Positions 2,431-64,000 of a DNA stretch of 64,000 bases are shown in pieces. Every line of letters begins with the position of its first letter. Within the stretch, counting starts at the first letter, position 1. Origin of the DNA: Elainellales cyanobacterium (GTDB lineage Bacteria; Cyanobacteriota; Cyanobacteriia; Elainellales; Elainellaceae); assembly GCA_041746655.1 (NCBI GenBank), contig JBGTGR010000003.1, positions 36,275 to 100,274 of the forward strand, in the 5' to 3' direction. The notes below the pieces were generated by a model, which was not told the origin of the DNA, ran no database searches, and saw only the letters and a program-made list of their open reading frames with translations. The translations under genes and the position numbers were made by a program.

Positions 2431-2463
2431 AACTTTGTCTGGCAATCAATCCTTGAGCCAGGG

Positions 2464-8013: not shown

Positions 8014-8129
8014 CCGCTTCTTAGCTGATCAGCCTTCAGAAATAGTCGGATAGAGTGGTAGGGGAGTGAAAAATTCTCTCCTACCACTCTTTGTTTTATT
8101 TAGTCAGATATCTAATCAGAAGGTAGCTC

Positions 8130-8543
8130 ATGACGATCTTGCGGCGATTGATTCCTGCGGCGACTCCGGTTGCTGTTCTTGTAGTGTTGGGTTTTGCCTC
8201 TGCTCCAGCCCGGGCTGACTGGGTGCGGGTTGGAGAAAACCAGGCGGGCGATCGCTACCACGTTGAGATCGATCAGGTGACCGAAATTGGCGATGGGGTT
8301 GTGGTTTTCGATACGCTCATTTCTTTTGCCGAGGCTGAACCGTCAGGTGCTGTAGTGCTCATCGATCGATTTGTGGCCGATTGTCGCACCCATACGGTTA
8401 CTAATGTTTCGTGGGCGTCTTATGGCCCAGACCAAGCTTTGGTTGAAGCTGATTCGTTGCCGCTGGTTGAAACACAAGCTGCGCCAGATGGGACGCTGAT
8501 GGCGGCTGAAATTGATTTGGCTTGCGCTACGGTAGGCCATTAG
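8130..8543 (+). CDS. Hypothetical secreted protein (signal peptide ...ASAPARA/DW)
   Basis: 137 aa with an N-terminal signal-like segment and two Cys. No family recognised. Confidence 0.5.
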   Translation: MTILRRLIPAATPVAVLVVLGFASAPARADWVRVGENQAGDRYHVEIDQVTEIGDGVVVFDTLISFAEAEPSGAVVLIDRFVADCRTHTVTNVSWASYGPDQALVEADSLPLVETQAAPDGTLMAAEIDLACATVGH

Positions 8544-8566
8544 GAATGTGAAGGTCAGGTTTTGCC

Positions 8567-9670
8567 ATGAGCCAGGTTGTGGTCATTGGGTGTGGAGTGG
8601 TTGGAGCGGCGATCGCCTATGAACTCAGCCAGGTTCCAAGCTTGACGGTGACGGTGGTGGATCGTCAGCCGCCTGCTCAGGGGGCAACAGGGGCAGCTTT
8701 GGGGGTGCTGATGGGGGTGATCAGCCACAAGGTGAAGGGTAAGGCTTGGCGGATGCGGCAGACGAGTTTGCAGCAGTATGAGCGCTGGGTGCCTGAGCTG
8801 GAGGCGGTGACGGGGCGATCGCTCCCTTTTAATCGGCAGGGAATTTTAAAGCTGTGTTTTGAGGGGGAAGACCTGTCTCGCTGGGAAAAGCTGGCGGAGG
8901 TGCGGCGATCGCAAGGCTGGTCGCTGGAGGTTTGGGATCGCGATACGCTACAGGCTCGCTGTCCCTACTTGGGCGATCGCCTGATCCAGGGAGCAGTTTA
9001 TTCTCCACAAGATCGGCAGTTGGACCCGACGGCGTTGACGTTGGCGTTGGTGGAGGCGTCTCGGCAGCGAGGGGTTCGGTTTTACTTTGGGGTAGAAGTC
9101 CAAGGGATAGAAGGCAAACCTGGCGCGGCTGGGCTATGTTTGCAAGTGGCTCCTAATGCGGAGATGCAAGAGGCTCTGACTACTGACTGGGTGGTGATTT
9201 CGGCGGGGTTGGGATCGATGGGATTGACGGGGGCGATCGCTCAACCTGTGGAGATTCGTCCGGTGTTGGGGCAGGCGTTGCATTTGCGGTTACGGCAGCC
9301 GTTGGGTGATCTGGGCTTTCAGCCAGTGATCACGGGGGATGATAGTCATCTGGTGCCGTTGGGTGGGGGGGAATATTGGTTGGGGGCGACGGTTGAGTTT
9401 ATGCCGGAGCAGGGAGAATTGGTGGCGGATGGGGAGCGGTTGCGGGAGGTGTTGGAGGGAGCGATCGCCTTTTGTCCAGATCTGGCAAGGGCTGAGGTGT
9501 TGCGGTCTTGGTCGGGGATGCGTCCGCGTCCGGAGGGGCGACCTGCGCCGATTGTTGAGCGGTTGGCGGGGTGTGAGAATGTGTTGTTGGCGACGGGGCA
9601 TTATCGCAATGGGGTGTTGTTGGCTCCGGCGACGGCTTTGATGATTCGGGAGTTGATTGTTGAGAAATGA
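8567..9670 (+). CDS. FAD-dependent oxidoreductase, DAO family (glycine oxidase ThiO-like)
   Basis: N-terminal Rossmann motif VVVIGCGVVGAAIAYEL. Length of 367 aa and the C-terminal GHYRNGVLLAP motif are typical of glycine/D-amino-acid oxidases. Confidence 0.75.
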   Translation: MSQVVVIGCGVVGAAIAYELSQVPSLTVTVVDRQPPAQGATGAALGVLMGVISHKVKGKAWRMRQTSLQQYERWVPELEAVTGRSLPFNRQGILKLCFEGEDLSRWEKLAEVRRSQGWSLEVWDRDTLQARCPYLGDRLIQGAVYSPQDRQLDPTALTLALVEASRQRGVRFYFGVEVQGIEGKPGAAGLCLQVAPNAEMQEALTTDWVVISAGLGSMGLTGAIAQPVEIRPVLGQALHLRLRQPLGDLGFQPVITGDDSHLVPLGGGEYWLGATVEFMPEQGELVADGERLREVLEGAIAFCPDLARAEVLRSWSGMRPRPEGRPAPIVERLAGCENVLLATGHYRNGVLLAPATALMIRELIVEK

Positions 9671-9742
9671 TTGTTGGGGGCTGGCTGTTGGGGGACTTGA
9701 GCTTGGGAACCGAGCCTTGGGGGCGTACCCCCAAACCCCCTT

Positions 9743-9767
9743 GTGGGGGACGGGTTCCGTCCCCCAC
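9743..9767. terminator. Strong GC hairpin between convergent genes (no U-tract)
   Basis: GTGGGGGACGG-GTT-CCGTCCCCCAC is a perfect 11-bp stem. It is preceded by a second G5/C5 hairpin, TGGGGG-CGTA-CCCCCA, at about 9716-9731. Confidence 0.35.
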
Positions 9768-9933
9768 ACCCCCTCGGTAAGGGTTGATCTGTGAGGGGCA
9801 CAAATCGCTTCGCTTCGGTGGGATGCAAGGGGTTGCTAGAAGCTCTGGAAGGGATACCCAATTTACAAATGGAGCGCATCCCACAGCTTACTCAGCTTGG
9901 CATTTCTCATCGGTGCTGTCTGATTATGAGTTT

Positions 9934-21403: not shown

Positions 21404-23203
21404 TTAAAAGGCGGAGGAATTAGAAATCGGTTGGGGACGAGGTGCTGAGCTGCTGCTGGCGATCCATTTTTTGGCGATCGCCATCCGCCAGCCTGTACCA
21501 AAGGCGCGATCGGTAATTTTGAGGCCGGGGGGCGCTTGTTTGCGTTTAAATTCGGCTCTAGCGACGAGACGGACGACGCGATCAACAATTGCAGGATCAT
21601 GACCTGCGGCAGCGATGTCAGCAGGAGCTTGATGTTGCAGGATGAGGCGATCGAGAATGTCGTCGAGGATGTCGTAGGAGGGCAGGGAGTCTTGATCGCG
21701 CTGGTCGGGTTTGAGTTCGGCGCTGGGAGGTTTCTCTAGAATATTGGGGGGGATGACGAAGGCTGAAGTGGGCCGCAGCATAGCTGATGGATCGAGGCTG
21801 TTGTTGGTGCAGCCTGCGGAGGTCATGGTTGCGTTGAGCCAGTGGCAGAGGGAGTAAACGCGGGTTTTGGGAACGTCGGCGATCGCAGCCAGTCCCCCAT
21901 TCATATCGCCGTAGAGGGTGCAGTAACCGACGGCCATTTCTGACTTGTTTCCGGTTGAGATCAAGAGATGGCCAAACTTATTGGATACAGCCATGAGCAA
22001 GTTGCCCCGGATGCGCGACTGGATATTTTCTTCGGCAATACCAAATTCGGTTCCGGCAAACAGCTCGGCAAAGGTTTCGTCATAGCTCTGCATCAGTTTA
22101 CCGATGGGTAAGGTGTGGGTTGCAATGCCCAAACTTTTGGCAAGTTCTAATGCATCGGTGACAGAATGGTCGGAGCTGTAGGGAGACGGCATCAGTATGC
22201 CCAGGACGTTTGCTGAGCCGAGGGCAGCGGTGGCGATCGCCCCCACCAGAGCAGAGTCAATGCCGCCGCTCAGGCCAATTACCACCTTAGAAAAGCCACA
22301 CTTTCGGGTATAGTCTCGCACGCCCGTCACCAGCGCCGACCAGATTTCGGCATCTGCACTGTCGGGTTGCGGGGCGATCGCTCCTGCCAGCAATTCACCT
22401 TGCGCCAGATCAAACTCGACCCGCAGCAAATCGGGGGCAAAGGCGCGAGCCCGACAGATCAAGTCTCCCCGACTATTGAAGCCGACGCTGCTGCCGTCAA
22501 AAATCAGATCATCGTTGCCGCCGACTTGATTGGCGTAGAGAATCGGCTGCTGATAGCGCACCGCCGCATGACGCAGCATGTCTTCCCGAATTTTTTGCTT
22601 GCCGAGGCTGTAGGGTGAAGCTGACAAGTTTACGACCAGATCAACGTCCTGATTGGCCAGATCCGCGATCGGGTTGACGGTATAGCTGCGCTTGCCCCAA
22701 AAAGCTTCATCGTTCCAGAGGTCTTCGCAGATGGTGACACCGACCTTGAGGGGAGGCTCATTTCCATCCAGCGCTGCTAGCTGAAAAGAATTGCTCTGGA
22801 GTCCGGGTTCAAAGTAACGATCTTCATCGAACACGTCATAGGAGGGTAGCAGTCGCTTGTGAAAAATCTGCTGAACCGCACCCCCATCTAGGAGGGCAAT
22901 GCTATTGAAGAGAGGATTGCCGCCGTCTTCGTGCGATCGCACATTGGGTTCTACTATCCCCACCAACACCGCAATCTGGGGCGGCAAGTCTTTTGCTAAC
23001 TGCGTCACAGTATCGGCGATCGCCCGCACAAAGCTGGGTTGCAGCAACAAATCTCGCGGCGGATAGCCACAGAGGGAAAGTTCGGGCGTCAGCAACAGTC
23101 GAACTCCCTGCTCAGCAGCAGTCTGAGCCGCTTGAAGGATTTGCTGGGCGTTGCCAGCTAGATCTCCAATGGTGGGATTGAGTTGGGCGATCGCAAGTTT
23201 CAT
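21404..23203 (-). CDS. nadE: Glutamine-dependent NAD+ synthetase (CN-hydrolase domain + NAD synthetase domain)
   Basis: N-terminal nitrilase-like domain (MKLAIAQLNPTIGD...TICEDLW) and the PP-loop GLSGGIDSA. Confidence 0.9.
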   Translation of the reverse strand: MKLAIAQLNPTIGDLAGNAQQILQAAQTAAEQGVRLLLTPELSLCGYPPRDLLLQPSFVRAIADTVTQLAKDLPPQIAVLVGIVEPNVRSHEDGGNPLFNSIALLDGGAVQQIFHKRLLPSYDVFDEDRYFEPGLQSNSFQLAALDGNEPPLKVGVTICEDLWNDEAFWGKRSYTVNPIADLANQDVDLVVNLSASPYSLGKQKIREDMLRHAAVRYQQPILYANQVGGNDDLIFDGSSVGFNSRGDLICRARAFAPDLLRVEFDLAQGELLAGAIAPQPDSADAEIWSALVTGVRDYTRKCGFSKVVIGLSGGIDSALVGAIATAALGSANVLGILMPSPYSSDHSVTDALELAKSLGIATHTLPIGKLMQSYDETFAELFAGTEFGIAEENIQSRIRGNLLMAVSNKFGHLLISTGNKSEMAVGYCTLYGDMNGGLAAIADVPKTRVYSLCHWLNATMTSAGCTNNSLDPSAMLRPTSAFVIPPNILEKPPSAELKPDQRDQDSLPSYDILDDILDRLILQHQAPADIAAAGHDPAIVDRVVRLVARAEFKRKQAPPGLKITDRAFGTGWRMAIAKKWIASSSSAPRPQPISNSSAF

Positions 23204-23205
23204 AT

Positions 23206-23952
23206 CTAGATAAAAACTAGAGGCTTGTCTTTGAGGGGGGCGAAGGCGTCGGCGTCGAAGCGGTAGAGACTGGCGGGGCGTCCGGCTCCGCGTGAGGTTT
23301 TGAGGCCTGTATCGGAGAGGAAACCGAGCTTGAGTAGGCGGGCGCGGAAGTTGGAATAGTCGGAAAAGTTTTCGCCCAAGACGGTGGTATAGAGCTGATA
23401 TAGATCGCTGAGGGTAAAGGTTTCGGGCAGGACTTCAAAGGCGATCGGGCTATATTCCAACTTGTTTCTGAGGCGGCGATAGCCATATTCCAGCAGTTGG
23501 TTGTGGTCGAAGGCGAGTTGGGGAACCTGATCCATCGGATACCAGGCAATGCCGCTGACACCGTCGGCAATCAGCTCAGCTTCGGCAAAGCGCACCAGGG
23601 CAAAATAGCTAACCGAGAGATAGCGCACCCCGTAGCTATGTTTGTCTTCCCTGGGGTCGCGTCCGGGGCCGCCGAAGGTATAAAGCTGCTCTAGATAGAG
23701 GTTTTCGACCCGAATCTTTTCGGCTAACACTCGATAGGCGGCATCTTCTAAGGATTCGCCTTTCTGGACTAGTGTGCCGGGTAGACTCCACTGCCCCAGA
23801 AAGGGATCGTCCCGGCGCATGACCAGCAGCACCAGCAGACGATTTTGAACCGTATCGACTGAAAAAATCACGCTATCAACCCCGACCTTAAAATCGGCTA
23901 GGGCCTTCGAGTTTAGTGAGTCGGCAGTTTTTTTCTGGACTCGTCCTGACAT
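23206..23952 (-). CDS. nrtR: Nudix-related transcriptional regulator of NAD metabolism (NrtR-like): Nudix fold + C-terminal winged helix
   Basis: The Nudix-box region GESLEDAAYRVLAEKIRVE is degenerate at the REUxEE positions (RVLAEK). A C-terminal ~90-aa wHTH-like domain is present. The gene is embedded in the pncB-nadD-nadE operon. Confidence 0.65.
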   Translation of the reverse strand: MSGRVQKKTADSLNSKALADFKVGVDSVIFSVDTVQNRLLVLLVMRRDDPFLGQWSLPGTLVQKGESLEDAAYRVLAEKIRVENLYLEQLYTFGGPGRDPREDKHSYGVRYLSVSYFALVRFAEAELIADGVSGIAWYPMDQVPQLAFDHNQLLEYGYRRLRNKLEYSPIAFEVLPETFTLSDLYQLYTTVLGENFSDYSNFRARLLKLGFLSDTGLKTSRGAGRPASLYRFDADAFAPLKDKPLVFI

Positions 23953-24512
23953 TCGTATAGCTGCTCCCGATGGATATAGGCCTCAATGGGAGGAGTCAGC
24001 ACTTCTGGATCTCCTTCTTCACGATACGCTGTCGAGGAGACCGCTGGAACCTCTAAATCGGCGATCGCCACTTCTGCGCCCAGTTGCCGCAGGGGATCTA
24101 AGTCGGCTTCCTGCAATGTGTAGCCGGGACGAGGAATCACCAACAGCTTCACCATTTTCAGCAAATCCTCTATCCGATACCAGCTCGGCAACTGCTCGAC
24201 CAAATCAGAGCCCACTGTGAGCGTCAGGTCGGCATCGGGCCAGCGCTGACGGGCTTGCTCGACGGTGAACAGCGTGCGGGGACTGCTTAATTCTGAATGT
24301 AGCGCAATGTTGTTGCGCGGCGGGTAGATATCTGCGATCAAGAGCCGCAACATGGCCTCCCGATGTACTAACGGCGTCTGGTGAGACTTAAAAGGATTGT
24401 CGGAGGCCCAAACCACGACTTGATCGTAGCGATAGGAGAGCCAGCTAAGGATCTTTTGGTGTCCGGCAGTGGGTGGATCAGCGCTGGTGCCAAAGAGAGC
24501 AATGGAAGTCAT
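23913..24512 (-). CDS. nadD: Nicotinate-nucleotide adenylyltransferase
   Basis: IALFGTSADPPTAGHQ (the (H/T)xGH motif). Start taken at the ATG at 24512 (MTSIALFG); the track ORF extends to 24605 and overlaps pncB. Confidence 0.8.
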   Translation of the reverse strand: MTSIALFGTSADPPTAGHQKILSWLSYRYDQVVVWASDNPFKSHQTPLVHREAMLRLLIADIYPPRNNIALHSELSSPRTLFTVEQARQRWPDADLTLTVGSDLVEQLPSWYRIEDLLKMVKLLVIPRPGYTLQEADLDPLRQLGAEVAIADLEVPAVSSTAYREEGDPEVLTPPIEAYIHREQLYECQDESRKKLPTH

Positions 24513-24576
24513 AGGGGTCGGCCATAGAGAGCGATTGAGAACAAACAGAGTTGGATTCAGCGATCTTAGCCAAACC

Positions 24577-25953
24577 CTATCCTGCGGGCTGTCCAGCATA
24601 AGCACCGTGAATTCGCTGGTGGACTTGCTCAGCTAGATTTTGCAAATCATCGGAGATTTTGGGCTCAACTGCAACCGGATGCTCTAGCCAGCGTGTCGAT
24701 TCGGGCAGGCTGACGACGGAGGCACGAGTGCGACGGGCGATCGCCTCCAAAGTCTCTGGCGGCTGCAATGCTTCTCCCTGGGCCATGACGCGCTGGAGCA
24801 GCGGTTGACCTTCCACTTGGGTTTCACCGACGAGAGCGAGGCGATCGCCCCTCATTTGCCCCGCCTCAAAGTACCGAAAAATCTGTTTACGGCCTGGATA
24901 GGTGGCCTTGCGACTCGACTCTTTCATGGTGGCAATATTGTCGATCTCAACTAGCTTATAGACGCCGTTGACGGGTTCTCCAGTCACGAGTTTGGTGCCC
25001 AGTCCGTAGCCGTCGATGCTGGCTCCAGCGGCCAAAAGTTCAGCAATCTTATATTCATCTAAGTCGCCGCTGGCAAAAATTTGGGCTTCAGGGAGGAGCG
25101 ATCGCACCTGCTTTGATAGCGCTGCTAAGTCGCCCGAATCGAGCCGCACCCCAGAAACCTGGATCTGGCCAGCCTGTTGTTGCTCGGCCAACCGTCGAGC
25201 CGCATCGACCGTATCGTAGGTGTCGATCAACAGTGTCGCAGATGGGAAATAGCGATGAAAGGCCCGGAATGCCTTGTCTTCATCGCCTTCTAGGGCGGAA
25301 AGCGCCATTACGAGAGCATGGGCCATTGTTCCACTGGGTTGTTGCCCCAGCTTGACGGCAGCCAAAACGTTGGAAGTTGCGTCCAATCCTGCCGCCAGCG
25401 CTGCCCGTGCCGCCCACATCGAACCCTGGGGACTAAAGGCTCGACGAGTGCCAAACTCCAACAGCTTGGCATCTGGCCCTGCTACATCCCGCAGACGTGC
25501 CGCACGGGTCGCCACCAACGTCTGAGAGTTGATCGCGTTTAGGATGTAGGTTTCCACAAGCTGGGCTTGCCAGAGGGGAGCCTCTATCCGCAAAAACGGT
25601 TCATTGGCAAACAGAGCGGTTCCTTCGGGCACAGCCCAAACATCGCCTGTAAAGCTGGCCTCGCTAAGCAGGTCCCAAAACCGCGACGGCACATGCTCAA
25701 ACAGTCCAGTAGCCTGTAATGCTGAAATCTGGGCCGGACCAAAGCTAAATTTCTCTAAGTAGTCCAGCACTTGAGCCAAACCCATCGCGATCAGGTAGCC
25801 GTAGCCTGTGGGCAATTTTCGGACAAACAGCTCAAAGCTTGCTCGACGTTGCTCCAACCCTTCACCCACATAGCAAGCTGCCATGGTGAGTTGGTACAGG
25901 TCAGTGAGCAGGCCATATTCTTCTGGACGAATGATGAGTTCCTGATCTGGCAT
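24577..25953 (-). CDS. pncB: Nicotinate phosphoribosyltransferase
   Basis: 458 aa. N-terminal LLTDLYQLTMAACY and overall NAPRTase-like sequence. First gene of the NAD operon. Confidence 0.85.
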   Translation of the reverse strand: MPDQELIIRPEEYGLLTDLYQLTMAACYVGEGLEQRRASFELFVRKLPTGYGYLIAMGLAQVLDYLEKFSFGPAQISALQATGLFEHVPSRFWDLLSEASFTGDVWAVPEGTALFANEPFLRIEAPLWQAQLVETYILNAINSQTLVATRAARLRDVAGPDAKLLEFGTRRAFSPQGSMWAARAALAAGLDATSNVLAAVKLGQQPSGTMAHALVMALSALEGDEDKAFRAFHRYFPSATLLIDTYDTVDAARRLAEQQQAGQIQVSGVRLDSGDLAALSKQVRSLLPEAQIFASGDLDEYKIAELLAAGASIDGYGLGTKLVTGEPVNGVYKLVEIDNIATMKESSRKATYPGRKQIFRYFEAGQMRGDRLALVGETQVEGQPLLQRVMAQGEALQPPETLEAIARRTRASVVSLPESTRWLEHPVAVEPKISDDLQNLAEQVHQRIHGAYAGQPAG

Positions 25954-29237: not shown

Positions 29238-29537
29238 ATGCAGGCATTGATGCGCGAGCTTTCTTTGTCAGAACATTCGGTGGTGGTGGCGGTTCAAGGA
29301 CAAGTTTCTGCTGATTTGGCTGGAGAGGCTGTAGTGCTCAATCTTCAGTCAGGCGTATATTACGGTCTCAATGAAGTTGGGGCTCGCATTTGGGAACTGA
29401 TTCAGCAGCCGACTTCTGTTGTCATGCTTTGCGAGACGTTGCTGGCTGAATATGAGGTGGAGCCAGAGCGCTGTCAACAAGATCTGTTGCAGATTTGCCA
29501 AGACCTGATTGCCTCTGGATTGGCGGAGGTCTTATGA
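29238..29537 (+). CDS. Lasso peptide biosynthesis B1 protein (PqqD-family RiPP recognition element)
   Basis: 99 aa. GEAVVLNLQSGVYYGLNEVGARIWELI is a classic PqqD/RRE signature. Its stop overlaps the next ATG (ATGA at 29534-29537). Confidence 0.85.
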   Translation: MQALMRELSLSEHSVVVAVQGQVSADLAGEAVVLNLQSGVYYGLNEVGARIWELIQQPTSVVMLCETLLAEYEVEPERCQQDLLQICQDLIASGLAEVL

Positions 29538-30001
29538 AAGATCTGATGAAAGGTCTGTATTGGGTTTGGCGTCATAGAATCTGGCACTTGTCGGCGGGCG
29601 ATCGCCTCCTATTGCTACGAGCAGTCTTACGGCTGGGCTGGGTGCGATTGGGGCTATGGCTGCTGCCGTTTTCGGTGTGGCGAAACTGGTGGTTGCGATC
29701 GCCCGCCCCCTCAACCGATCTGCGTCCGGTGGTCACGGTGGCTCAAATTGCCTGGGCTGTAGCTGCTGCTAGTCGTCTGCAACCAGGAACCGCCAAGTGT
29801 TTGGCGAGGGCCTTAACGATGCAGGCTCTGCTCAAGCAATATAGCTATGCGGCGGATCTCCATGTGGGTGTCGCGAAGGGAGACCAAGGCCAGCTAGAGG
29901 CTCATGCCTGGGTTGAGGCTGAGGGCCGAGTGGTAATAGGACAGTTAAATGATTTGACCCGCTTTGTGCCGCTGCCGTCGCTGGTTGGAGGGCGATCATG
30001 A
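29534..30001 (+). CDS. Lasso peptide biosynthesis B2 protein (transglutaminase-like cysteine protease, leader peptidase)
   Basis: Trp/Arg/Leu-rich N-terminus, then GTAKCLARAL (Cys) ... LHVGV ... EAHAWVE (His), typical of PF13471 lasso B2 proteins. ATGA overlap with the cyclase start. Confidence 0.85.
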   Translation: MKDLMKGLYWVWRHRIWHLSAGDRLLLLRAVLRLGWVRLGLWLLPFSVWRNWWLRSPAPSTDLRPVVTVAQIAWAVAAASRLQPGTAKCLARALTMQALLKQYSYAADLHVGVAKGDQGQLEAHAWVEAEGRVVIGQLNDLTRFVPLPSLVGGRS

Positions 30002-32007
30002 GCGGCATCGTTGGGATCTATGGCTGCAATAGTCAACACCTCCACCAAGCTGAGTTGCAGCGGATGGTGGAGGTGTTGGCGCATCGAGGACCCGACGGTG
30101 CAGAAATGTGGCTGGAGGGAGCAATTGGGCTGGGGCATCGCATGCTGTGGACAACGCCTGAGTCTTTGCTGGAGCGCTTGCCCTGGGTGAGTTCGGGGGG
30201 CTGTGTGATTACGGCAGATGCCCGAATTGATAACCGAGAGGAGCTGATTGCAACGCTGGCAATGGGCGATCGCCCTGCCGAAAAAATCACCGACAGTGAG
30301 CTGATTGTGGCGGCGTATGAATGTTGGGGCGATCGCTGTCTTGATCACTTGTTGGGCGATTTCGCCTTTGCAATTTGGGACCCCCACCAACAGCAGTTGT
30401 TTTGTGCAAGAGATCATTTTGGTGTCAAGCCGTTTTACTACTACGCGCAAGAGGGTCAATTTATTTTTGCCTCAGAAATGAAGGCTATCTTGGCACTGCC
30501 ACAAGTGCCTCGCCGTATCAATGAGGTGCGGATTGGCGACTACCTCAGCATGGCAATGGAAGATCAGACGATCACCACCTATCAAGACATTCTGCGGCTG
30601 CCACCTGCCCATCAGATGACGGTTAGCTCAACGGGGCTACAGCTCCAATGCTATTGGTCACTCAACCCGACACAAGAGCTTTACTTGGAGTCGGATGCAG
30701 CCTATGCAGAGGCATTTCAGCGAATCTTTACCAAAGCGGTGCGCTGTCGGTTGCGGAGTACTTTTGCAATCGGGTCTCAGCTCAGTGGTGGTCTCGATTC
30801 TTCGGCAGTGACCTGTGTGGCCCGACAGCTTCTGGTTGAAGCAGAGCAAGCGCCACTGCATACGATTTCAAATATTTTTGACACCATTACTGAGTGCGAT
30901 GAGCGTCCCTACATTCAAGCTGTCCTGGCAGAGGGAGACTTGATCCCTCACTATGTGCAAGCTGATGAAGTCGGTCCATTGACAGACGTTAAAGAGATCT
31001 GGCAGTACGAAGATGAGGCCTTTACGGGGCCAAATCATTACCTGCCCTGGGGCCTCAACCGAGCGGCACAGCAGCATGGCCTGCGCGTAGTTTTAGACGG
31101 ATTTGATGGCGACACCACCGTTTCGCACGGATTGCTCCGCCTGTTAGAACTGCTCGATCAAGGTGACTGGCAAACCTTTGTTCAAGAAGCAGAGGCGATC
31201 GCCCCCCGTTTAGATCTCTCCGCTCAAGCGGTGATTCAAAGCTATAGCGAGCTGCATCTACAGCAATTGGCCAAGCAAGGACGATGGCGAGCCTGGATAT
31301 GGGCTGCTCGTCAGCTCAACAAATATTGTCGTGGGTTGCCCCAGCACCTCCTACTCAGAACCGGGCTCAAGCCGCTGATTCCCCACCGCCTCAAGCAGCT
31401 CTGGCAACGACTTCGTTCTGGCTCTTCCAGTGCCAGATCCATGCCCTGGATCAATCCCAGCTTTGCCCGTCAGATTGGCCTAGAGCAGCGAATCCAGGCT
31501 CAAGGGCAATCTTCCGACCCGCCATTGACGGTGAGAGAAGAACAATGGCGATCGCTCACCTCTGGCGTCCGCACCTACGTGCTAGAGCAAATGGATCGCT
31601 ATGCGGCTGCCTGTGGCCTGGAGATGCGCCATCCCTTTATGGACAAACGATTGATTGAGTTTTGTCTGGCACTGCCTGCCCAGCAAAAGCTAGACCAGGG
31701 CTGGAATCGTATCGTCATGCGTCGAGCCCTGACTGGAATTTTGCCGGAGGTCATCCAGTGGCGCAGCAGTAAAACAGACATGACGCCCAATTTTGTTCAT
31801 GGCTTGCTCGACCTCGATCGTCAATCTCTGGAGGCTGCAATTCTCAACCGCTCTAGCCTCCTAGAGAAGTATATGGATGCTGACTTTTTACAAACTGTTT
31901 ATCACCAGATTTCAACAGAAGGAAAAGTCGGAAACGGCGACCTGATGATGATTTGGCGAACTGCCATCTTGGCGCTGTGGCTTCACCAAGGTCAAGCGGT
32001 ACCATGA
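29998..32007 (+). CDS. Lasso peptide cyclase (asparagine-synthetase-like C protein)
   Basis: 669 aa. The N-terminus is MSGIVGIYG, with Ser where true AsnB has the Cys2 nucleophile. PP-loop SGGLDSS is present. The context is B1/B2/precursor. Confidence 0.9.
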   Translation: MSGIVGIYGCNSQHLHQAELQRMVEVLAHRGPDGAEMWLEGAIGLGHRMLWTTPESLLERLPWVSSGGCVITADARIDNREELIATLAMGDRPAEKITDSELIVAAYECWGDRCLDHLLGDFAFAIWDPHQQQLFCARDHFGVKPFYYYAQEGQFIFASEMKAILALPQVPRRINEVRIGDYLSMAMEDQTITTYQDILRLPPAHQMTVSSTGLQLQCYWSLNPTQELYLESDAAYAEAFQRIFTKAVRCRLRSTFAIGSQLSGGLDSSAVTCVARQLLVEAEQAPLHTISNIFDTITECDERPYIQAVLAEGDLIPHYVQADEVGPLTDVKEIWQYEDEAFTGPNHYLPWGLNRAAQQHGLRVVLDGFDGDTTVSHGLLRLLELLDQGDWQTFVQEAEAIAPRLDLSAQAVIQSYSELHLQQLAKQGRWRAWIWAARQLNKYCRGLPQHLLLRTGLKPLIPHRLKQLWQRLRSGSSSARSMPWINPSFARQIGLEQRIQAQGQSSDPPLTVREEQWRSLTSGVRTYVLEQMDRYAAACGLEMRHPFMDKRLIEFCLALPAQQKLDQGWNRIVMRRALTGILPEVIQWRSSKTDMTPNFVHGLLDLDRQSLEAAILNRSSLLEKYMDADFLQTVYHQISTEGKVGNGDLMMIWRTAILALWLHQGQAVP

Positions 32008-32074
32008 CCAAAAATTAGGGCTGCAATACCAACTTCAAGACCTCACTAGAAGATTAAGAACAGGAGACTCCAGA

Positions 32075-32260
32075 ATGAAAAAGAGTTACACCCCCCCCAA
32101 AATCACAGTTCACGGCACTATTGAAGAACTCACCCAGTTCTTTGATGCCGTGTCGGCTAGAGACACACTATTTACTTCCGGAAACCCAGCAGGGATTGCT
32201 GGCGAAGGCTCGGCTGACTTCAGATGTCGAGCGGGTGGCGTCTGCGAGATTGAGCCTTAA
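32075..32260 (+). CDS. Lasso peptide precursor (A), 61 aa
   Basis: AGGAG RBS 8 nt upstream. MKKSYTPPKITVHGTIEELTQ fits the lasso leader motif YxxPx(L/I)x3Gx5Tx. Downstream sequence: FFDAVSARDTLFTSGNPAGIAGEGSADFRCRAGGVCEIEP. Confidence 0.8.
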   Translation: MKKSYTPPKITVHGTIEELTQFFDAVSARDTLFTSGNPAGIAGEGSADFRCRAGGVCEIEP

Positions 32261-32455
32261 TAACTAAGTCACACAGCTCAGACTGAGCCAACCCATTCTT
32301 TAGGCAGTGCATCTTGGGAACGTTGCTCCATCAGGCTAGCCCAGCTTTGTTCTCAACCTTTGTTCTGTTGGGAGAATTTTGCCCCACACGCAGCTCAAAG
32401 ACTTCTACCAAGCTGGGCCTACCTTTCCTCCAAATTCTTGCTTCGGCTATTGGTG

Positions 32456-33358
32456 ATGTACATCTACACGGCTTATCACCTTTGTATTCATTCCGAGTTC
32501 CCGCTCCAGGAACTGACGATTGCTGATGGGGCACCAGATGTAACGGTGCGGTTGGGCCAGATTAAAGCGTTGGCAGATGGACCGCTTAATGGTAAAAACA
32601 ATGATAAAAATCGAGTATTGGGAGAATTGTCCGGCATTGGGTGGTTCTTGATTGAGCAAGGACACACTATCACCATCGAACCTGAGCCGGGTGTTGATGA
32701 TTTAGCTTTGAGCCCTAACGTGTTGGGGCCTGCCATGTCGGTCCTCTTGCGACAAAGAGGATTATTGGTCTTACATGCCAGCAGTGTCGTGGTTGGAGGA
32801 GAGGCGATCGCCTTCCTGGGTGCCTCCGGTTGGGGTAAATCGACTCTAGCCAAAGCTTTTCACAATCAGGGCTATAGCGTTCTCACCGATGATGTGCTGG
32901 CCATTGATACCCACCCTGCTACACCTGTGGTGCTGCCAGGATTTCCTCAGCTCAAGCTCTGGCCCGATGCCGCTCTCTCATTAGGTTCCAACAATCTGCC
33001 ACCGCTCTTTCCCAATGCCTCTAAGCTTGCGTTTCGGTTTGACCAGGGCTTTCAACTGACGCCAATCCCTCTCCGGCGCATCTATGTACTGGCACGAGGA
33101 ATTGATCACAAAATTTCTCCCCTGGAGCCTCAAACAGCGCTAATCGAGCTGGTCCGCCATACTCGCATGGTCAATGTTTTAAAGGCACCCGAATTAGTGC
33201 GGGCGCACTTGCAGCAATGTGCGGATCTGGTGCAGCAGACATCAATCCGCCAGTTTACGCGGCAATTGTCACTGGCAGCCATGCCTGAATTGATTCAGCT
33301 GATCGAAGCCGATTTGGGCATCGGTAATGCGATCGCCTGCGAATCCTCACCCGGATAA
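32456..33358 (+). CDS. HPr-kinase-like (HprK C-terminal domain) protein, putative lasso peptide kinase
   Basis: LVLHASSVVVGGEAIAFLGASGWGKSTLAKAF carries the P-loop. Start taken at the ATG at 32456; the track ORF begins at a TTG at 32360. Confidence 0.7.
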   Translation: MYIYTAYHLCIHSEFPLQELTIADGAPDVTVRLGQIKALADGPLNGKNNDKNRVLGELSGIGWFLIEQGHTITIEPEPGVDDLALSPNVLGPAMSVLLRQRGLLVLHASSVVVGGEAIAFLGASGWGKSTLAKAFHNQGYSVLTDDVLAIDTHPATPVVLPGFPQLKLWPDAALSLGSNNLPPLFPNASKLAFRFDQGFQLTPIPLRRIYVLARGIDHKISPLEPQTALIELVRHTRMVNVLKAPELVRAHLQQCADLVQQTSIRQFTRQLSLAAMPELIQLIEADLGIGNAIACESSPG

Positions 33359-34508
33359 AGTCCCAACCGTAGTATTCATTTTCATCGCTGACCCGCCTCT
33401 TATGAATTTTTCGTTGGCCATTGCTCCAGAAAAAGAGCATCCAGAGGCAAGGCTGGTGCGCTGCTGCGCTCGAATGCAAATGAGTGCAGAGTGGGAAAAA
33501 GCCCTCCGCCAGACCCTCTTGCTGCCGATCGATTGGCCCCTGTTGACTCAAATTGCGCTCTGTCAGGGTATGATGCCCTTGCTCTATCGGAACTTGAAGG
33601 CCACTTGCCCTGAAGCCGTGCCCCCGGCTTGCTTGCGATCGCTCCAGCAACACTTTCAAGCCAATGCCCTGCACAGCTTGCCTTATGCACAGGAGCTATT
33701 GCACCTCTTGCGCCAGCTAGATGCCTCTCAAGTTCGCGCCATTCCTTACAAAGGCCCCATGCTAGCGGCGAAGGTTTATCACAATCTTTCACTGCGAGAG
33801 TTTTGTGATTTGGATATTTTGGTGCATGAGCAAGATGCAGCAAAGGCGATCGCCCTCCTCCAAAACGAAGGCTACGATTGCACAACTGCATCAGCCTGGG
33901 AACAAAACTTTTGCCACTATACCCGCAAAGTCAATGTTGACTTGCACTGGGGCATTACCCAGCCCTATCTCGCTTTTCCGATCGAGTTTGATCACCTATG
34001 GCAGCGACGGGAAACTGTTTTGATGTCGGGGGCCGAGGTGCCTAGCCTGTCGGCAGAAGATTTGCTAATAGTGTTGGTGGTGCAAGTTGCCAAAGATGGC
34101 TGGTGCAGACAGTCTCAGCTGATTAAAGTCTGCGATGTGGCTGAGCTGATCCATTCGCGGCCCGAGCTCAACTGGGATTGGGTAATGGCAGAGGCTCGCC
34201 GCAAGGGAAGCTTACGCATACTATTTTTGGGATTGTTAATTGCGACTGAGGTGTTGGGCGCACCCCTACCGCCAGAAATTGCTATGCAAGTCCGGGCTGA
34301 TGCCACGATTCGAGGGTTGGCCGCCAGAATCCAACAGCAACTCTTTGAGGCTCGATGGCTGACCTCAATGGCCTCTAAAGGCATCTTGCAAGTCTTGAAA
34401 GATCGGGCTGATACGGCTGTGTTCCCGCTCCAGATGAGAGAACGCTGGCAGGATCAAGTCCCTTACTTACTGCACGGCTTGAAGACTTTAGTTGCTCAGC
34501 GAGATTGA
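33327..34508 (+). CDS. Uncharacterised nucleotidyltransferase family protein (PF14907/NTP_transf_5-like), lasso-cluster-associated
   Basis: FCDLDILVHEQDAAKAIALLQNEGY is typical of this family. The start is either the ATG at 33327 (32-nt overlap with the kinase) or the ATG at 33402. Confidence 0.6.
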   Translation: MRSPANPHPDKVPTVVFIFIADPPLMNFSLAIAPEKEHPEARLVRCCARMQMSAEWEKALRQTLLLPIDWPLLTQIALCQGMMPLLYRNLKATCPEAVPPACLRSLQQHFQANALHSLPYAQELLHLLRQLDASQVRAIPYKGPMLAAKVYHNLSLREFCDLDILVHEQDAAKAIALLQNEGYDCTTASAWEQNFCHYTRKVNVDLHWGITQPYLAFPIEFDHLWQRRETVLMSGAEVPSLSAEDLLIVLVVQVAKDGWCRQSQLIKVCDVAELIHSRPELNWDWVMAEARRKGSLRILFLGLLIATEVLGAPLPPEIAMQVRADATIRGLAARIQQQLFEARWLTSMASKGILQVLKDRADTAVFPLQMRERWQDQVPYLLHGLKTLVAQRD

Positions 34509-39864: not shown

Positions 39865-41265
39865 TCAGGGATTCTCCTGTTCTAGGGAGTAGGGGTTGCT
39901 GGAATAAACAGAGTTAACCTGTTGTAGCTTCTTTTGCTCCATCCATTCCAAGAAGCGCACTAATGTATAGCCAAAAATCATTGGCCAGAGTACTAGCAAC
40001 GTAATATCTCGCCCTAAGTTAGGTGTGATACCAAGACCCACCAGAAAAAGACAAAGTCTCAGTACGGAATAGCTTTGACTCCAAAGTCTGGCTAAAAAGG
40101 CCGCCCATAGACCCAGTAAAAATGCTGGCGCGATGGGACCAAGCCAAGGCCCAAAGTTGAGCACACCCCGACCCAGAAAACCCGCCGCGATTGTGGCGAA
40201 GACACCAATTTCGCTGCTTGCGCTGCCAAATCCCCTTAAGACGTTATATTCATAGCCAAGAATTGGTTTGCTAGGCCAAATGACGCGTGGAATGAAGTTA
40301 AGAAAGTCTGCTAAGTAGTCAAAACCATATTTAAGGGTGACAGCTCCTTGGGTGTAGAAAGTATTGACATAAAATAGCTCCTCCGCCATGTTTAGACCTA
40401 GATGCTTTGTTTCTGTTCGGGTACTTCCACCCTGATCTAGATCTAAGAGAAAGTCATCGAATCCAATATTTCGGTAGGCAATAACAATGGTGAAAATATA
40501 GTTTAGGGCGATAAGTAACAAGAAAGAAACGCCAATTTTTATCCACCATTTTTGTTTGGAAATTAAAACATAGGTGAAGAAGGCTGGCATGGCGACTGCT
40601 AAGAACTGGTTGCGAGTTCCCAGCAGAATGAAATATGGCCAAGAGATCAGAATAATAGCAAGGTTCATCACTCTGGCTTGAAATCGAGTCTGGAGGAGAA
40701 GCATTACTCCAAAAAATGCACAGAGGAGACTATAGGTATAGCCTGCCGAGGAGATAATGAATCCCATCGCACCTGCAGATGCACCACCACCCCGTCCCCA
40801 CATTTGTCTTCCGGCTCTTGCTGCTAGAGGGAAAAGTGCTTGAAAGAAATCCCAATTTAATCGGCTTGCTCCATACAAGAGCAGTAGAAACCAAAGAATT
40901 GAGATATAGGCAAGCAGTCGCGCTGGATTTAACGAAAGTCGGCTGACTATTTTGTATAGTTCAGATGGCTTTGCGATTAGTTTTTTGGTGAAAAATGGAG
41001 TGAAGATGCGGAAGAAAGTTAGGAAAATAATTACTTGAAAGTAACTCATTTCCACGACAGAGGATGAGAAGCTAAGATAGTTTTCAGGGGTATAAATAAT
41101 TTCAACAAAGTACCAAAGAGCAGTTGTGGCGTAGACAACAAGAGCCGGAATCCTCCAAACTTGCCTTCTTCTGATAAACGCTTCTAGACTAAGAAGCGCT
41201 AGCAAGATGCCAGCTAGAATATAAAGTAATGGTAGTTCTGGGCTAAATGCAGCTTCGGGACTCAT
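39865..41265 (-). CDS. Polytopic membrane protein, O-antigen polymerase/ligase-like (Wzy-like)
   Basis: 466 aa with at least 10 hydrophobic segments and one larger loop, inside a glycan cluster. There is no diagnostic motif, so the call rests on topology and context. Confidence 0.45.
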   Translation of the reverse strand: MSPEAAFSPELPLLYILAGILLALLSLEAFIRRRQVWRIPALVVYATTALWYFVEIIYTPENYLSFSSSVVEMSYFQVIIFLTFFRIFTPFFTKKLIAKPSELYKIVSRLSLNPARLLAYISILWFLLLLYGASRLNWDFFQALFPLAARAGRQMWGRGGGASAGAMGFIISSAGYTYSLLCAFFGVMLLLQTRFQARVMNLAIILISWPYFILLGTRNQFLAVAMPAFFTYVLISKQKWWIKIGVSFLLLIALNYIFTIVIAYRNIGFDDFLLDLDQGGSTRTETKHLGLNMAEELFYVNTFYTQGAVTLKYGFDYLADFLNFIPRVIWPSKPILGYEYNVLRGFGSASSEIGVFATIAAGFLGRGVLNFGPWLGPIAPAFLLGLWAAFLARLWSQSYSVLRLCLFLVGLGITPNLGRDITLLVLWPMIFGYTLVRFLEWMEQKKLQQVNSVYSSNPYSLEQENP

Positions 41266-54322: not shown

Positions 54323-55267
54323 CTATCTCATCCATCTAGGTTGTTTTCCCTGTTGAAGTCTAGCCCTGACCTGCTCTGGTTTCTTGGTCGCTATTAAATT
54401 AAGATAGGGATAACGAGCGCGCAAAGCCTCCGGAACTAGACTTTTTGATTTAGGATCGTAAGTAAAGAGTTGATATCCCAACTTAATGAGCTGGTGATAG
54501 AGTGCTTCACAAGAAGAGTTTGCTGCTTTGCAGTTCTTCTCTGTAAATTCGACCTGTAACACAGGAGCATCTGGGCGGGAGAGAATCTCGGTAGCACCTG
54601 ATAGAACATAAGATTCCCAACCTTCCACATCAATTTTCATCATAGTGACGTGCCCCACTAGATTATTCTCCTGGGCAAACAAGCTCCATGTTGTAGCCTT
54701 AACTGTTTCCGTCGCAAAGTCGCTACCTGCAGTAGGTTTTCCTAATGAGTTCCAGGCATCAAACCCATCTAAAGATGTGGTCATGTTTAGATCAGAAACC
54801 TGATCGGAAAGCGCAAGTTGATAGCAATCAATGTGGGTAAAGCAATTGAGGTTAACATTTTCTAGTAAGCGCTGATAGGTTTGTCCAGAAGGTTCAAATG
54901 CATAAACTTTTCCAGTTTTACCTACTAACTTCGCGGCAATTAAACTAAACAATCCAATATTGGCACCAATATCAATATAAGTGTCTCCTGGTCGTAGAAA
55001 AGCATTTAAAAATTTTCGCTCTGAATACTCAAATCTTCCTCGATAGATCAGGCGGCAAAGATCACTATCTCGATACAGCCGCATTTTTACACCTGGCTGA
55101 ATTTGAAGATCCATTATTTTCTTATAGTCAGTCTGAGCATTCCACCATTCAATCCGCTTTGGTGTAATATAGCGACGCCATTTGAATTGGAGGCGATGCT
55201 GGACATGGTTTACCAAAGTTCCGTTGCGGAAGTGAGTAATACCGTGATTAAACTTGCTCAACATCAT
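54323..55267 (-). CDS. FkbM-family methyltransferase
   Basis: YIDIGANIGLFSLIAAKLVG motif. Start taken at the ATG at 55267; the track ORF extends to 55321 and overlaps wzt. Confidence 0.7.
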   Translation of the reverse strand: MMLSKFNHGITHFRNGTLVNHVQHRLQFKWRRYITPKRIEWWNAQTDYKKIMDLQIQPGVKMRLYRDSDLCRLIYRGRFEYSERKFLNAFLRPGDTYIDIGANIGLFSLIAAKLVGKTGKVYAFEPSGQTYQRLLENVNLNCFTHIDCYQLALSDQVSDLNMTTSLDGFDAWNSLGKPTAGSDFATETVKATTWSLFAQENNLVGHVTMMKIDVEGWESYVLSGATEILSRPDAPVLQVEFTEKNCKAANSSCEALYHQLIKLGYQLFTYDPKSKSLVPEALRARYPYLNLIATKKPEQVRARLQQGKQPRWMR

Positions 55268-56567
55268 AATTTGTTTGTGCTGTAGCAACCAATTGTGTAT
55301 TCCAGGACAAAATAGGAGCAATAGCTCCTGGACGGCGGCGGCCTTGTAGGGAGTTCCAAAAGGGAGAAATGCCGTGATCTAAAACTACTTCAAACTGAAC
55401 AACCGGATCTAAATGCACAATCCAATATTGGTTGTGTATCCCAATTCGAGGTGCAAGATGATAGATACCTGCATTCAAAAGTCCGGCAGGAACATTACAA
55501 CACCAGCGATTTTTCCCTACTTGAACTGGAAGAGTTTGCTCAGGCGGTAGATCAGTTTGGTAGCTTCTCAACACAGTAAATCCATCCTGCGTTAGTAAGT
55601 CGAAGCCAATGCACAAACCAGGATGAACAGAACTAGAAACAAACTCTACTTCAAACAAGAGAGAATTTTTACTAGAGTAGACGCCGCCAGAATTACCGTC
55701 TTGAGAAGACACACGAACTGCTGTAAGCTTAAAATCCTGATTGCCCGGTGCAGACTCTTCTTTCCAAGCTATTTCACTATCAATATTACCTGTCATCGTA
55801 AGATATTGAGCTACGACAGGTTGACACTTTCCAAGACTGATCAGTTGTCCCTGCTTTAAGTAGATAGCTTTTTCACAAAGTGATTGGATCGCTTGCATGT
55901 TGTGGCTCACAAATATTACTGTGCGGCCTTCCTTGCCAACTTTCTCCATCTTGCCCAGACACTTTTTTTGAAACTGGGCATCTCCTACTGCTAAGACTTC
56001 ATCTACGATTAAAATCTCTGGCTCTAAATGGGCTGCCACTGCAAAGGCAAGGCGAACGTACATTCCAGAGGAATAGCGTTTTACAGGTGTATCAAGAAAT
56101 TTTTCTACCTCTGCAAACGCAACAATTTCATCAAACTTGCGCTTGATTTCAACCTTACTCATGCCTAAAATTGCGCCATTCAAGAAAATGTTTTCTCGTC
56201 CGGTCAACTCAGGATGAAAACCTGTCCCAACTTCCAGCAGGCTAGACACTCGTCCGCGAATCCGCACACTTCCTTGGGTGGGTTCAACAATTCGGCTTAA
56301 GACTTTCAATAGTGTCGATTTTCCGGCTCCGTTGCGACCAATGATGCCAACGCGATCGCCCTGGTTGACCTCAAACGACACATCCTTCAGTGCCCAAAAC
56401 TCCTCTCTTGTCGGATCTTCAGCCTGCTTTCGTCGGGTCAGCTTGTGACCGAGCGATCGCGTCCCGTTTGCAATCACGTCCCGCAGCGCCGTATATTTCT
56501 CTTGCTGCTGATGGCCAATGATGTATTTCTTGCTGAGGTTTTCGACTCGAATGACCGGATTCGACAC
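55248..56567 (-). CDS. wzt: Polysaccharide/O-antigen ABC exporter ATP-binding protein (Wzt) with a C-terminal extension of about 180 aa (putative glycan-cap-binding domain)
   Basis: Walker A GRNGAGKST, signature YSSGM and Walker B ILIVDE. 439 aa, against about 250 aa for an NBD-only homolog. The C-terminus is beta-rich. Confidence 0.8.
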   Translation of the reverse strand: MSNPVIRVENLSKKYIIGHQQQEKYTALRDVIANGTRSLGHKLTRRKQAEDPTREEFWALKDVSFEVNQGDRVGIIGRNGAGKSTLLKVLSRIVEPTQGSVRIRGRVSSLLEVGTGFHPELTGRENIFLNGAILGMSKVEIKRKFDEIVAFAEVEKFLDTPVKRYSSGMYVRLAFAVAAHLEPEILIVDEVLAVGDAQFQKKCLGKMEKVGKEGRTVIFVSHNMQAIQSLCEKAIYLKQGQLISLGKCQPVVAQYLTMTGNIDSEIAWKEESAPGNQDFKLTAVRVSSQDGNSGGVYSSKNSLLFEVEFVSSSVHPGLCIGFDLLTQDGFTVLRSYQTDLPPEQTLPVQVGKNRWCCNVPAGLLNAGIYHLAPRIGIHNQYWIVHLDPVVQFEVVLDHGISPFWNSLQGRRRPGAIAPILSWNTQLVATAQTNYDVEQV

Positions 56568-56722
56568 TATCTACCCCACCCTCACTATAGTTTTGACGGT
56601 TTCACAATAGAGGCGATCGCCTCAACCCAAAACCTTCTCAGATATCTTCTAACCTATTCATTGATTTCTCTCCACATCGGGACAAATCAAAGAGAAGACC
56701 TACAGGCCACCTCGACCCTCCC

Positions 56723-57565
56723 TCAAATCACATCCGCAAACTTGCGTTCCATCTTGCGAAAATACCAAATGCCACTCACAAAGAGCAGCGAAACTAGCCC
56801 CATCGACAGCAAGAAACCCGGCAAATAAAGCTTTGCCTCACCGCCCAAAATCGCCCAGCGGAAGCCATCAATTACCCCCACCATTGGATTGAGCGAATAA
56901 AGAAACCGCCATTGCTCCGGCACAATGCTGCTGCTAAAGCCGACCGGAGAAATATAGAGACCAAACTGAACAATAAACGGCACAATATAGCGAAAATCCC
57001 GATATTGCACATTTAATGACGCCAGCCACAACCCCGCACCCATTGAGGCGGCAAAGGCGATCGCAATAAATAGCGGCAATGTCAAAATTCGCCAAGTGGG
57101 CACATAGTCATACCAGATCATCAGCCCCAGCAAGATCATGCCTGAAATCAAGAAATCTACAAAGCTGACAATTACTGCACTTGCAGGCACCACCAAGCGC
57201 GGAAAATAGACCTTTGAAATCAAATTGGCATTCCCGATCAAACTGCCGCTACACTCCGACAGCGCATTGGCAAAAAATTGCCAGGGCAACATCGCCGCAA
57301 ACACCAAAATCGGATAGGGCACGCCTTCCGACGGCAAGTTGGCCAACCGCCCAAACACCACCGAAAACACTACCATCGTCAAGAACGGTCGAATCAGCGC
57401 CCAAACTACCCCAATTGCCGTCTGCTTATAGCGCACCAAAATATCGCGCCACGCCAAAAAGTAAAATAGTTCTCGATAGCGCCACAAATCTCGCCAATAT
57501 TGCCGCTCGGTCCGTCCGGCCTCAATCACCAATTCGGTCTGAGCTGCATTTGCAGAATGAGACAT
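56723..57565 (-). CDS. wzm: ABC-2 type polysaccharide exporter permease (Wzm)
   Basis: 280 aa with 6 hydrophobic segments. WRYRELFYFLAWRDILVRYKQT is a typical ABC-2/Wzm N-terminus. Confidence 0.8.
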   Translation of the reverse strand: MSHSANAAQTELVIEAGRTERQYWRDLWRYRELFYFLAWRDILVRYKQTAIGVVWALIRPFLTMVVFSVVFGRLANLPSEGVPYPILVFAAMLPWQFFANALSECSGSLIGNANLISKVYFPRLVVPASAVIVSFVDFLISGMILLGLMIWYDYVPTWRILTLPLFIAIAFAASMGAGLWLASLNVQYRDFRYIVPFIVQFGLYISPVGFSSSIVPEQWRFLYSLNPMVGVIDGFRWAILGGEAKLYLPGFLLSMGLVSLLFVSGIWYFRKMERKFADVI

Positions 57566-63769: not shown

Positions 63770-64000
63770 CGAAGATTTAATTACCAAACGAATGCAACCA
63801 TCTTCCCTGATTCTGCCAGGATTTTCTGTCGAGTGGCTTTGCCTCTCAGTAGCTTGTCGTAACAATCTGTAAACTTTCTTAAGGTATCGGCAATCAATGC
63901 TGTTCAATTCCAGACTTTACCTCCTAATAACTCTCAACGGTTTAAAAATGAGACTTTTGAACTAAATGGCACAAAAAAAGCAATTAAGCAACGGCATGAA

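Follow-up and report, generated by a model that had tools for sequence, protein, structure and literature searches.

Only a few examples, from Bacillota and Proteobacteria, are known of lasso peptides tailored by both an HprK-like kinase and a PF14907 enzyme. Operons of the paeninodin and pseudomycoidin type (kinases PadeK, ThcoK, SyanK and PsmK; PF14907 enzyme PsmN) hold split B1 and B2 proteins, an Asn-synthetase-like cyclase, an HprK-like kinase and a PF14907 enzyme, and a conserved C-terminal Ser is the acceptor. The precursor of this type is phosphorylated before leader removal, and hexose is found on the phosphate in a PsmN-dependent manner (PMC6993621). In 2023, BsfK from the bsf cluster of Bradymonas sediminis, which also has an N gene (BsfN), was reported to phosphorylate the ring Ser3 of a lasso precursor ending in Asp, with stimulation by B1 (PMC10368454). 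Furthermore, LppK (2026) polyphosphorylates the non-terminal Ser3 of a linear peptide (PMC13381572). In our study, a 64,000-nucleotide stretch of contig JBGTGR010000003.1 from an Elainellales cyanobacterium (hereafter, the window) was analyzed. At positions 29238-34508 of the forward strand it carries six co-directional, tightly packed genes in the order B1-B2-C-A-K-N, which by their sequences are a complete lasso-peptide operon of the cyanobacterial lasso_cyano / lass_lactam_cya family of NCBIfam. Our favored reading, held with moderate confidence, is that the kinase K would phosphorylate Ser46 of the precursor A and that the PF14907 enzyme N would then elaborate the phosphate, within an intact lasso pathway.

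An earlier note on this DNA had described the C-terminal Ser as the normal target of such kinases and an internal acceptor as new chemistry for the enzyme pair. The first statement reflected the state of knowledge to 2019, after which the Ser3 sites of BsfK and LppK were found. Because both sites have been published (PMC10368454, PMC13381572), an internal acceptor is not new chemistry for the kinase class. The literature search, whose coverage left most subscription journals outside, found no paper that describes a product of the cyanobacterial lasso family, how it is modified or what K and N do there, and the only cyanobacterial treatment that it returned was a bioinformatic note on a Cyanocohniella metagenome-assembled genome (MAG).

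The six genes of the operon are as follows.

29238..29537, forward strand: B1, a PqqD-type recognition element (leader-binding chaperone) for peptides that are made by the ribosome and modified after translation, 99 amino acids (aa); PF05402, 72.7 bits
29495..30001, forward strand: B2, a transglutaminase-like leader peptidase; PF13471, 83.4 bits, and NF033537 (lasso_biosyn_B2), 103 bits against a cut-off of 33
29998..32007, forward strand: C, a cyclase of Asn-synthetase-like type for the lasso macrolactam, 669 aa; 985 bits on NF033535 (lass_lactam_cya), whose cut-off is 525
32075..32260, forward strand: A, the precursor peptide, 61 aa; 38.2 bits on NF033528 (lasso_cyano), whose cut-off is 33
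32456..33358, forward strand: K, an HprK-like P-loop kinase (predicted precursor-peptide Ser kinase), 300 aa; Walker A GASGWGKST and catalytic motif
33402..34508, forward strand: N, a PF14907 tailoring enzyme of nucleotidyltransferase fold, 368 aa; PF14907, 209.3 bits against a cut-off of 31.2

The precursor, the cyclase and B2 clear the curated models of the cyanobacterial lasso family, and B1 is marginal, with 79.4 bits against NF033536 (lasso_PqqD_Bac), for which the cut-off is 80. The cyclase additionally matches the Asn_synthase and GATase_7 domains, and the start codon of B2 is uncertain. The same genes are present in a second, independent assembly, where the precursor, K and N are called at 61, 300 and 368 aa. 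An AGGAG ribosome-binding site lies upstream of the precursor, which ends in ...GVCEIEP with Pro61 as its last residue. K and N follow it, and the earlier note was correct about this C-terminus and about the motifs GASGWGKST (K residues 122-130, nt 32819-32845) and CDLDILVHE (N, nt 33804-33830). A small correction applies to the beginning of N: the open reading frame (ORF) is open from 33327, but the likely start is the ATG at 33402, and with this start K and N do not overlap. In the intergenic stretch between the precursor and K, no attenuator or terminator was detected above chance (fold z-score -0.2; pattern scans at the level of shuffled sequence).

For comparison, 79 related cyanobacterial loci were fetched via an alignment of K, and their precursors were found by jackhmmer on small ORFs. 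On the upstream side of K, 126 ORFs for precursors were recovered in this way; 125 contained no ambiguous residue, and there were 121 distinct cores. A search of the protein database with the precursor itself returned only the copy from the window, since short ORFs are seldom called. The order B1-B2-C-precursor(s)-K was found in every one of the 79 loci that reaches far enough upstream, and the cyclase and precursors adjoin K in all loci that could be judged. These loci have an architecture in common with the window, and their NCBIfam family is defined by annotation models only. An ATP-binding cassette (ABC) exporter gene, D, is present in 71 of the 79 loci and stands directly after K in nearly all of these (for example, at 7988-9829 of locus L017); N occurs in 47 of the 79, placed after D. 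The window differs from this family in that the exporter is absent and K is followed directly by N, with a gap of 43 nt. Among the loci long enough to be judged, only L001 and L079 have K and N without an intervening exporter. Compared with the paeninodin and pseudomycoidin type, the window also differs in its gene order and in having no exporter.

The precursor was divided into leader and core, a boundary that the earlier note had left undefined, and its features are listed below.

32075-32137, forward strand: precursor leader, residues 1-21; lasso leader L3 motif over residues 5-21
32138-32257, forward strand: precursor core, residues 22-61 (40 aa), set by the leader register
32162..32164, forward strand: codon of Asp30 (core position 9), the predicted ring-closing acceptor of a Phe22-Asp30 macrolactam; family conservation
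32207..32218, forward strand: G-S-A-D motif with the Ser46 codon at 32210-32212 (core position 25), the predicted phosphorylation site; column conservation
32225..32245, forward strand: Cys51 and Cys57 (core positions 30 and 36) in C-RAGGV-C; two-Cys pattern in the family

The BsfK study named Tyr(-17), Pro(-14), Leu(-12) and Thr(-2) for lasso leaders (PMC10368454). In the window leader these positions are occupied by Y5, P8, I10 and T20, and G14 fits the motif too, so cleavage is predicted after Gln21. The motif [YW]xxPx[L/I/M]x3Gx5Tx was matched by 123 of 125 family precursors. The predicted 40-aa core is FFDAVSARDTLFTSGNPAGIAGEGSADFRCRAGGVCEIEP. Lasso peptides in general form the macrolactam with an Asp or Glu at core position 7-9. 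Core position 9 is Asp in 116 of the 121 distinct family cores, and from this conservation a 9-residue ring is predicted, which in the window would run from Phe22 to Asp30; a threaded lariat topology of the product is predicted as well. An alternative core from G36 to E44, with Thr34 at -2, was considered and rejected because Y5, P8, I10 and T20 fit the -17/-14/-12/-2 register and Asp30 is conserved; moreover, at a distance of 7-9 positions past that Gly, no acidic residue is conserved in the family. The core of the window is far longer than those of the paeninodin and pseudomycoidin type (the family median is 43 aa), and core position 1 is hydrophobic, being mostly I, A, V or F in the family.

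The absence of a C-terminal Ser, which the earlier note had implied to be a peculiarity of this precursor, was found to be common to its relatives. Only 9 of the 121 distinct cores adjoining K homologues end in Ser, so the lack of this residue is a property of the family and the window is not unusual in it. With Pro61 at its end, the precursor falls outside the paeninodin subfamily, for which a C-terminal acceptor Ser is the criterion. In this it resembles the bsf cluster, which is likewise a lasso cluster with K and N and a precursor not ending in Ser. However, BsfK acts on Ser3, within the ring, and the bsf leader has Ile at -2, whereas in the window family position -2 is Thr, core position 3 is Gly (Asp in the window) and a conserved Ser stands some 25 residues from the beginning of the core.

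Since there is no C-terminal Ser, the acceptor would be internal. The earlier note had reached the same view and had named S27, T31, T34, S35 and S46, with correct numbering, as candidates; among these five, only S46 proved to be conserved. The columns were read from a MAFFT alignment of 116 cores, in which 114 rows are occupied at the Ser46 column: Ser accounts for 107 of the 114 and Thr for 3. Immediately before this column, 84 cores have G and 24 have D, and at +2 there is D in 77, S in 20 and N in 15. Along the core, the conserved Ser ranges from position 23 to 40 (median 27; position 25 in the window) and is followed by 5-28 residues. As a control, the motif [GD]Sx[DN] was counted, in place of a control on alignment columns: it was present in 81 of 116 cores, against 12.4 ± 3.2 in composition-preserving shuffled tails (maximum 24 in 1000 shuffles). 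Ser46 is the sole conserved hydroxyl residue of the core. From this pattern it is the most likely acceptor among the listed candidates.

It is unlikely that K instead acts on another internal hydroxyl, namely the ring Ser27 (core position 6), to which the ring Ser3 of BsfA would be the parallel, or Thr31, Thr34 or Ser35 shortly behind the ring, with Ser46 employed otherwise. Both BsfK and LppK act near the core N-terminus, at Ser3, and the window core has Ser or Thr at positions 6, 10, 13 and 14, which would suit such a site. However, none of the four columns is conserved in the family: over the 116 cores, the S27 column holds G in 26, S in 23 and T in 15; the T31 column F in 53, V in 28 and T in 26; the T34 column F in 60; and the S35 column N in 63. 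Core position 3 itself is Gly in 106 of 116 cores and Asp in the window (Asp24, nt 32144-32146; FFD...). Furthermore, K is conserved in every locus, and an enzyme common to all of them would hardly lack an acceptor common to all of them.

Six cores have neither Ser nor Thr in the Ser46 column: four come from a paralogous cluster type, one has Cys and one is apparently misaligned. The Cys belongs to a Nostoc precursor (L055, 6189-6386), which reads GLDGCPDG at the conserved position; Ser is retained by its two siblings from that locus. The paralogous type is a second lasso cluster with short cores, seen at 10247-14398 of L020, 8795-12952 of L046, 10809-14843 of L039 and 11858-14834 of L074. Three of its four cores end in Ser (...TFS, ...PTS and ...VTS), a paeninodin-like pattern, and its kinases are only 36-41% identical to K of the window where they lie within the locus, the kinase of L074 being beyond the locus end. 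This co-variation of kinase clade and acceptor pattern, in few cases, points the same way as the conservation of Ser46 and would agree with its role as the acceptor. In addition, the residue at +2 of the conserved Ser is Asp in 53 of 57 precursors from loci with N and in 12 of 36 from loci without it, a comparison in which kinship is ignored and the alignment of the Moorena SSSLD is ambiguous. The bias may be a hint that N reads the acid at +2.

K shows weak but specific matches to Hpr_kinase_C, HprK_rel_A and HprK_rel_B. Against the models of bona fide HprK/P it scores far below the cut-offs (TIGR00679, 15.8 bits against 240; PF07475, 18.1 against 33.3), and judged by these scores it is not a member of the bona fide HPr kinase/phosphorylase family. 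The HprK/P of carbon catabolite control has the P-loop and the PEPCK-like fold in common with K, whereas the context of K is always a lasso cluster. The tailoring role that the earlier note had assigned to K and N is thus borne out by the scores and the lasso context, and the housekeeping placement that it had named as a refuting outcome does not occur, the closest sampled homologues of N likewise standing beside HprK-like kinases. His107, Gly122, Gly125, Gly127, Lys128, Ser129 and Asp145-Asp146 of K are invariant or at least 90% conserved among 30 homologues. Their spacing is identical to that of H148-G163-G166-G168-K169-S170-D186-D187 of BsfK, a set conserved among lasso kinases (PMC10368454); the His, Walker A and Asp-Asp motif is also common to the paeninodin and pseudomycoidin type, and the published motif was the basis on which K was likened to PadeK, PsmK, BsfK and LppK.

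A sequence profile search of the PDB gave P-loop-level matches only for K and no matches for N, so fold comparison was needed for both. The AlphaFold2 model of K had a predicted local distance difference test (pLDDT) score of 86.3, and its Foldseek matches were PEPCK (E 1e-7) and the HprK/P structures 3tqf, 1kkl and 1ko7 (E about 1e-5). The database search returned 1296 homologues of K; among the best 120, with 46-58% identity, every named one is cyanobacterial, and most of the best homologues carry the existing annotation PF27840 (named ScmC). An activity of K on a precursor Ser is predicted. Three Moorena loci have, about 4 kb downstream of the lasso kinase, another K-like gene (34-36% identity) that is not accompanied by a second cyclase (L002, 5015-5929; L007, 11040-12026; L008, 10964-11857). 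The Moorena loci have 4-6 tandem precursor genes.

The model of N (pLDDT 88.4) has a Pol-beta-type nucleotidyltransferase fold, and its closest folds are LnuA (4fo1), TM1012 (2ewr), ANT(2'')-Ia (5cfs) and the catalytic domain of FKRP (6kak). Asp136 and Asp138 (DLD) are invariant in 28 homologues and correspond to D134 and D136 of PsmN, an essential DxD pair whose D134A/D136A variant is inactive (PMC6993621). The closest homologues of N that were sampled (42-46% identity) adjoin HprK-like kinases, two in lasso clusters, of which L080 has the layout B1-B2-C-A-K-D-N, and one without a cyclase. The last is in an Abditibacteriales MAG (L082, 6637-9203), where a PF14907 enzyme with 42% identity to N of the window forms a module with a K-like P-loop protein and a PqqD-domain protein of 161 aa, and no lasso cyclase or B2 was found in it. 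This K-PqqD-N module is reminiscent of the Bacillota system for linear polyphosphorylated peptides (LPP; LppK, LppB, LppN), which resembles the window in its HprK-like kinase, discrete recognition element and PF14907 nucleoside triphosphate transferase module. The LPP system has no macrolactam cyclase or B2 and uses a signal-peptidase-like protease, whereas the window has the full lasso machinery.

In pseudomycoidin, one or two hexoses on the phosphate depend on PsmN, which may act directly or indirectly (PMC6993621). N could be a true nucleotidyltransferase, placing a nucleoside monophosphate (NMP) on the Ser46 hydroxyl or on its phosphate (Ser-P-P-nucleoside), either as the final group or as an activated intermediate for a separate transferase. 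We regard this as improbable. The model is nearest to the antibiotic-modifying O-nucleotidylyltransferases LnuA and ANT(2'')-Ia, the DxD is intact, and both Zyubko et al. and a later review allow nucleotidylylation by PsmN with hexose from a host glycosyltransferase. However, the adducts seen for PsmN in E. coli were all hexose (+162 Da), and none was a nucleotide. FKRP, which N resembles too, moves a phospho-alcohol from a CDP-activated donor rather than an NMP, and the glycosyltransferases adjoining the cluster in the window are not conserved beside related clusters. The likeness in fold to FKRP, an enzyme that forms phosphodiesters from CDP-activated donors, may be a clue to the chemistry of N, as a lead only.

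The tail of the core also contains Cys51 and Cys57. In 62 of 110 family cores, that of the window included, there are just two Cys and both follow the conserved Ser; Cys51 and Cys57 are probably joined in a disulfide that would form a small loop at the C-terminus. The same arrangement fits a different fate of Ser46, in which its phosphate is transient and is eliminated to dehydroalanine, which may form a lanthionine-like bridge with a downstream Cys, or is displaced or replaced by N. Phosphorylation followed by elimination is established in the class III and IV lanthipeptides. We consider this fate very unlikely here, because 48 of the 110 cores have no Cys and still keep the Ser, the profile matches of the operon proteins include no lyase or cyclase domain for it, and the characterized lasso kinases leave a stable phosphate or polyphosphate.

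Our preferred pathway, with a stable phosphate on Ser46, is built on the gene identities, the synteny, the intact catalytic motifs, the leader and core register, and the conservation of Asp30 and Ser46. B1 would bind the 61-aa precursor through its YxxPxL...T leader. With the leader still attached, K would move a phosphate from a nucleotide triphosphate to the Ser46 (core Ser25) side chain in the middle of the tail. B2 would cleave behind Gln21, and C would close the 9-residue Phe22-Asp30 macrolactam around the tail. Afterwards or beforehand, N would decorate the phosphoserine, most likely with a phosphodiester-linked hexose or similar group, as for PsmN. We infer the order of the steps and the dependence on B1 from work on PadeK, PsmK and BsfK, kinases of a class that phosphorylates the precursor Ser before leader removal with the aid of B1 (PMC10368454, PMC6993621, PMC13381572).

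Several points weigh against this pathway. Conservation of Ser46 could instead reflect recognition by the cyclase or peptidase, a structural turn or target binding. The family sequences are phylogenetically related, so that the counts are not independent, and the control on alignment columns is weak, since re-aligned shuffled tails reach 98 of 116 identical residues (Gly or Pro, never Ser). The Asp at core position 3 means that the window member may behave atypically. No D-like exporter gene was found anywhere in the 64-kb window. Moreover, PsmN, the model for the chemistry of N, may act directly or indirectly, and LppN showed no activity when produced in a heterologous host (PMC13381572).

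Some of these points would also suit a locus in which K and N no longer act on the precursor, as relics or in the service of a polysaccharide operon, and the product is an unmodified lasso peptide: the exporter of 71 of the 79 relatives has been lost, the cluster abuts a large glycosyltransferase/ABC-2 operon, and core position 3 does not have the usual residue of the family. We consider such a loss of function extremely unlikely. Neither the K nor the N ORF is truncated, every catalytic residue is intact in them, both genes are co-directional and tightly spaced with the precursor, and Ser46 and its motif are retained. In addition, the genes for the polysaccharide run on the opposite strand and do not occur next to related lasso loci.

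The genes of that operon (34496-57565, reverse strand) converge on the lasso operon and include family 4 (GT4) and family 2 (GT2) glycosyltransferases and an FkbM methyltransferase. The same convergent operon holds a multi-pass membrane protein without a Pfam match (39865-41265) and an ABC-2 permease/ATPase pair (55248-57565). Judged by its gene content, it looks like an O-antigen or exopolysaccharide pathway. The neighboring glycosyltransferases were considered as members of the lasso cluster and rejected, only 5 weak GT4 matches being found in the 79 loci. Elsewhere in the window, a block for NAD salvage lies at 21404-25953 on the reverse strand and encodes NAD synthase (NadE), nicotinate phosphoribosyltransferase, a regulator of the NUDIX/NrtR type and a cytidylyltransferase-like protein of the NMNAT type. 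A 1072-aa BTAD/AAA_16 regulator (2398-5616, forward strand) and a SelO protein adenylyltransferase (62210-63907, reverse strand; 734 bits) are apparently unrelated to the lasso cluster.

Taken by its genes, the window would represent a new exporter-less member of a large cyanobacterial branch of lasso peptides tailored by K and N, with a predicted new acceptor position. The branch rests on a family of more than 1000 kinase homologues, of which the best-matching and named ones are cyanobacterial. If Ser46 is the acceptor, a Ser in the middle of the tail would be a third class of site beside the C-terminal Ser and the ring Ser3. A fuller form of this idea is offered tentatively and is rather doubtful as a whole: in a third acceptor class defined by the mid-tail Ser of G-S-x-D, the Asp at +2 would perhaps stand in for the C-terminal carboxylate encountered by kinases of the paeninodin type, and the FKRP/LicD-like N would build a phosphodiester-linked group that could serve as a steric plug and hold the threaded, unusually long tail of about 40 residues. 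A post-translationally installed lock was speculated for pseudomycoidin by Zyubko et al. (PMC6993621). Three specific predictions follow for the window, namely cleavage after Gln21, a ring from Phe22 to Asp30 and a phosphate on Ser46 in G-S-x-D. The value of the cluster is mainly that of a well-specified experimental lead, and, if the predictions are true, the chemistry of N could be elucidated in a cyanobacterial system.

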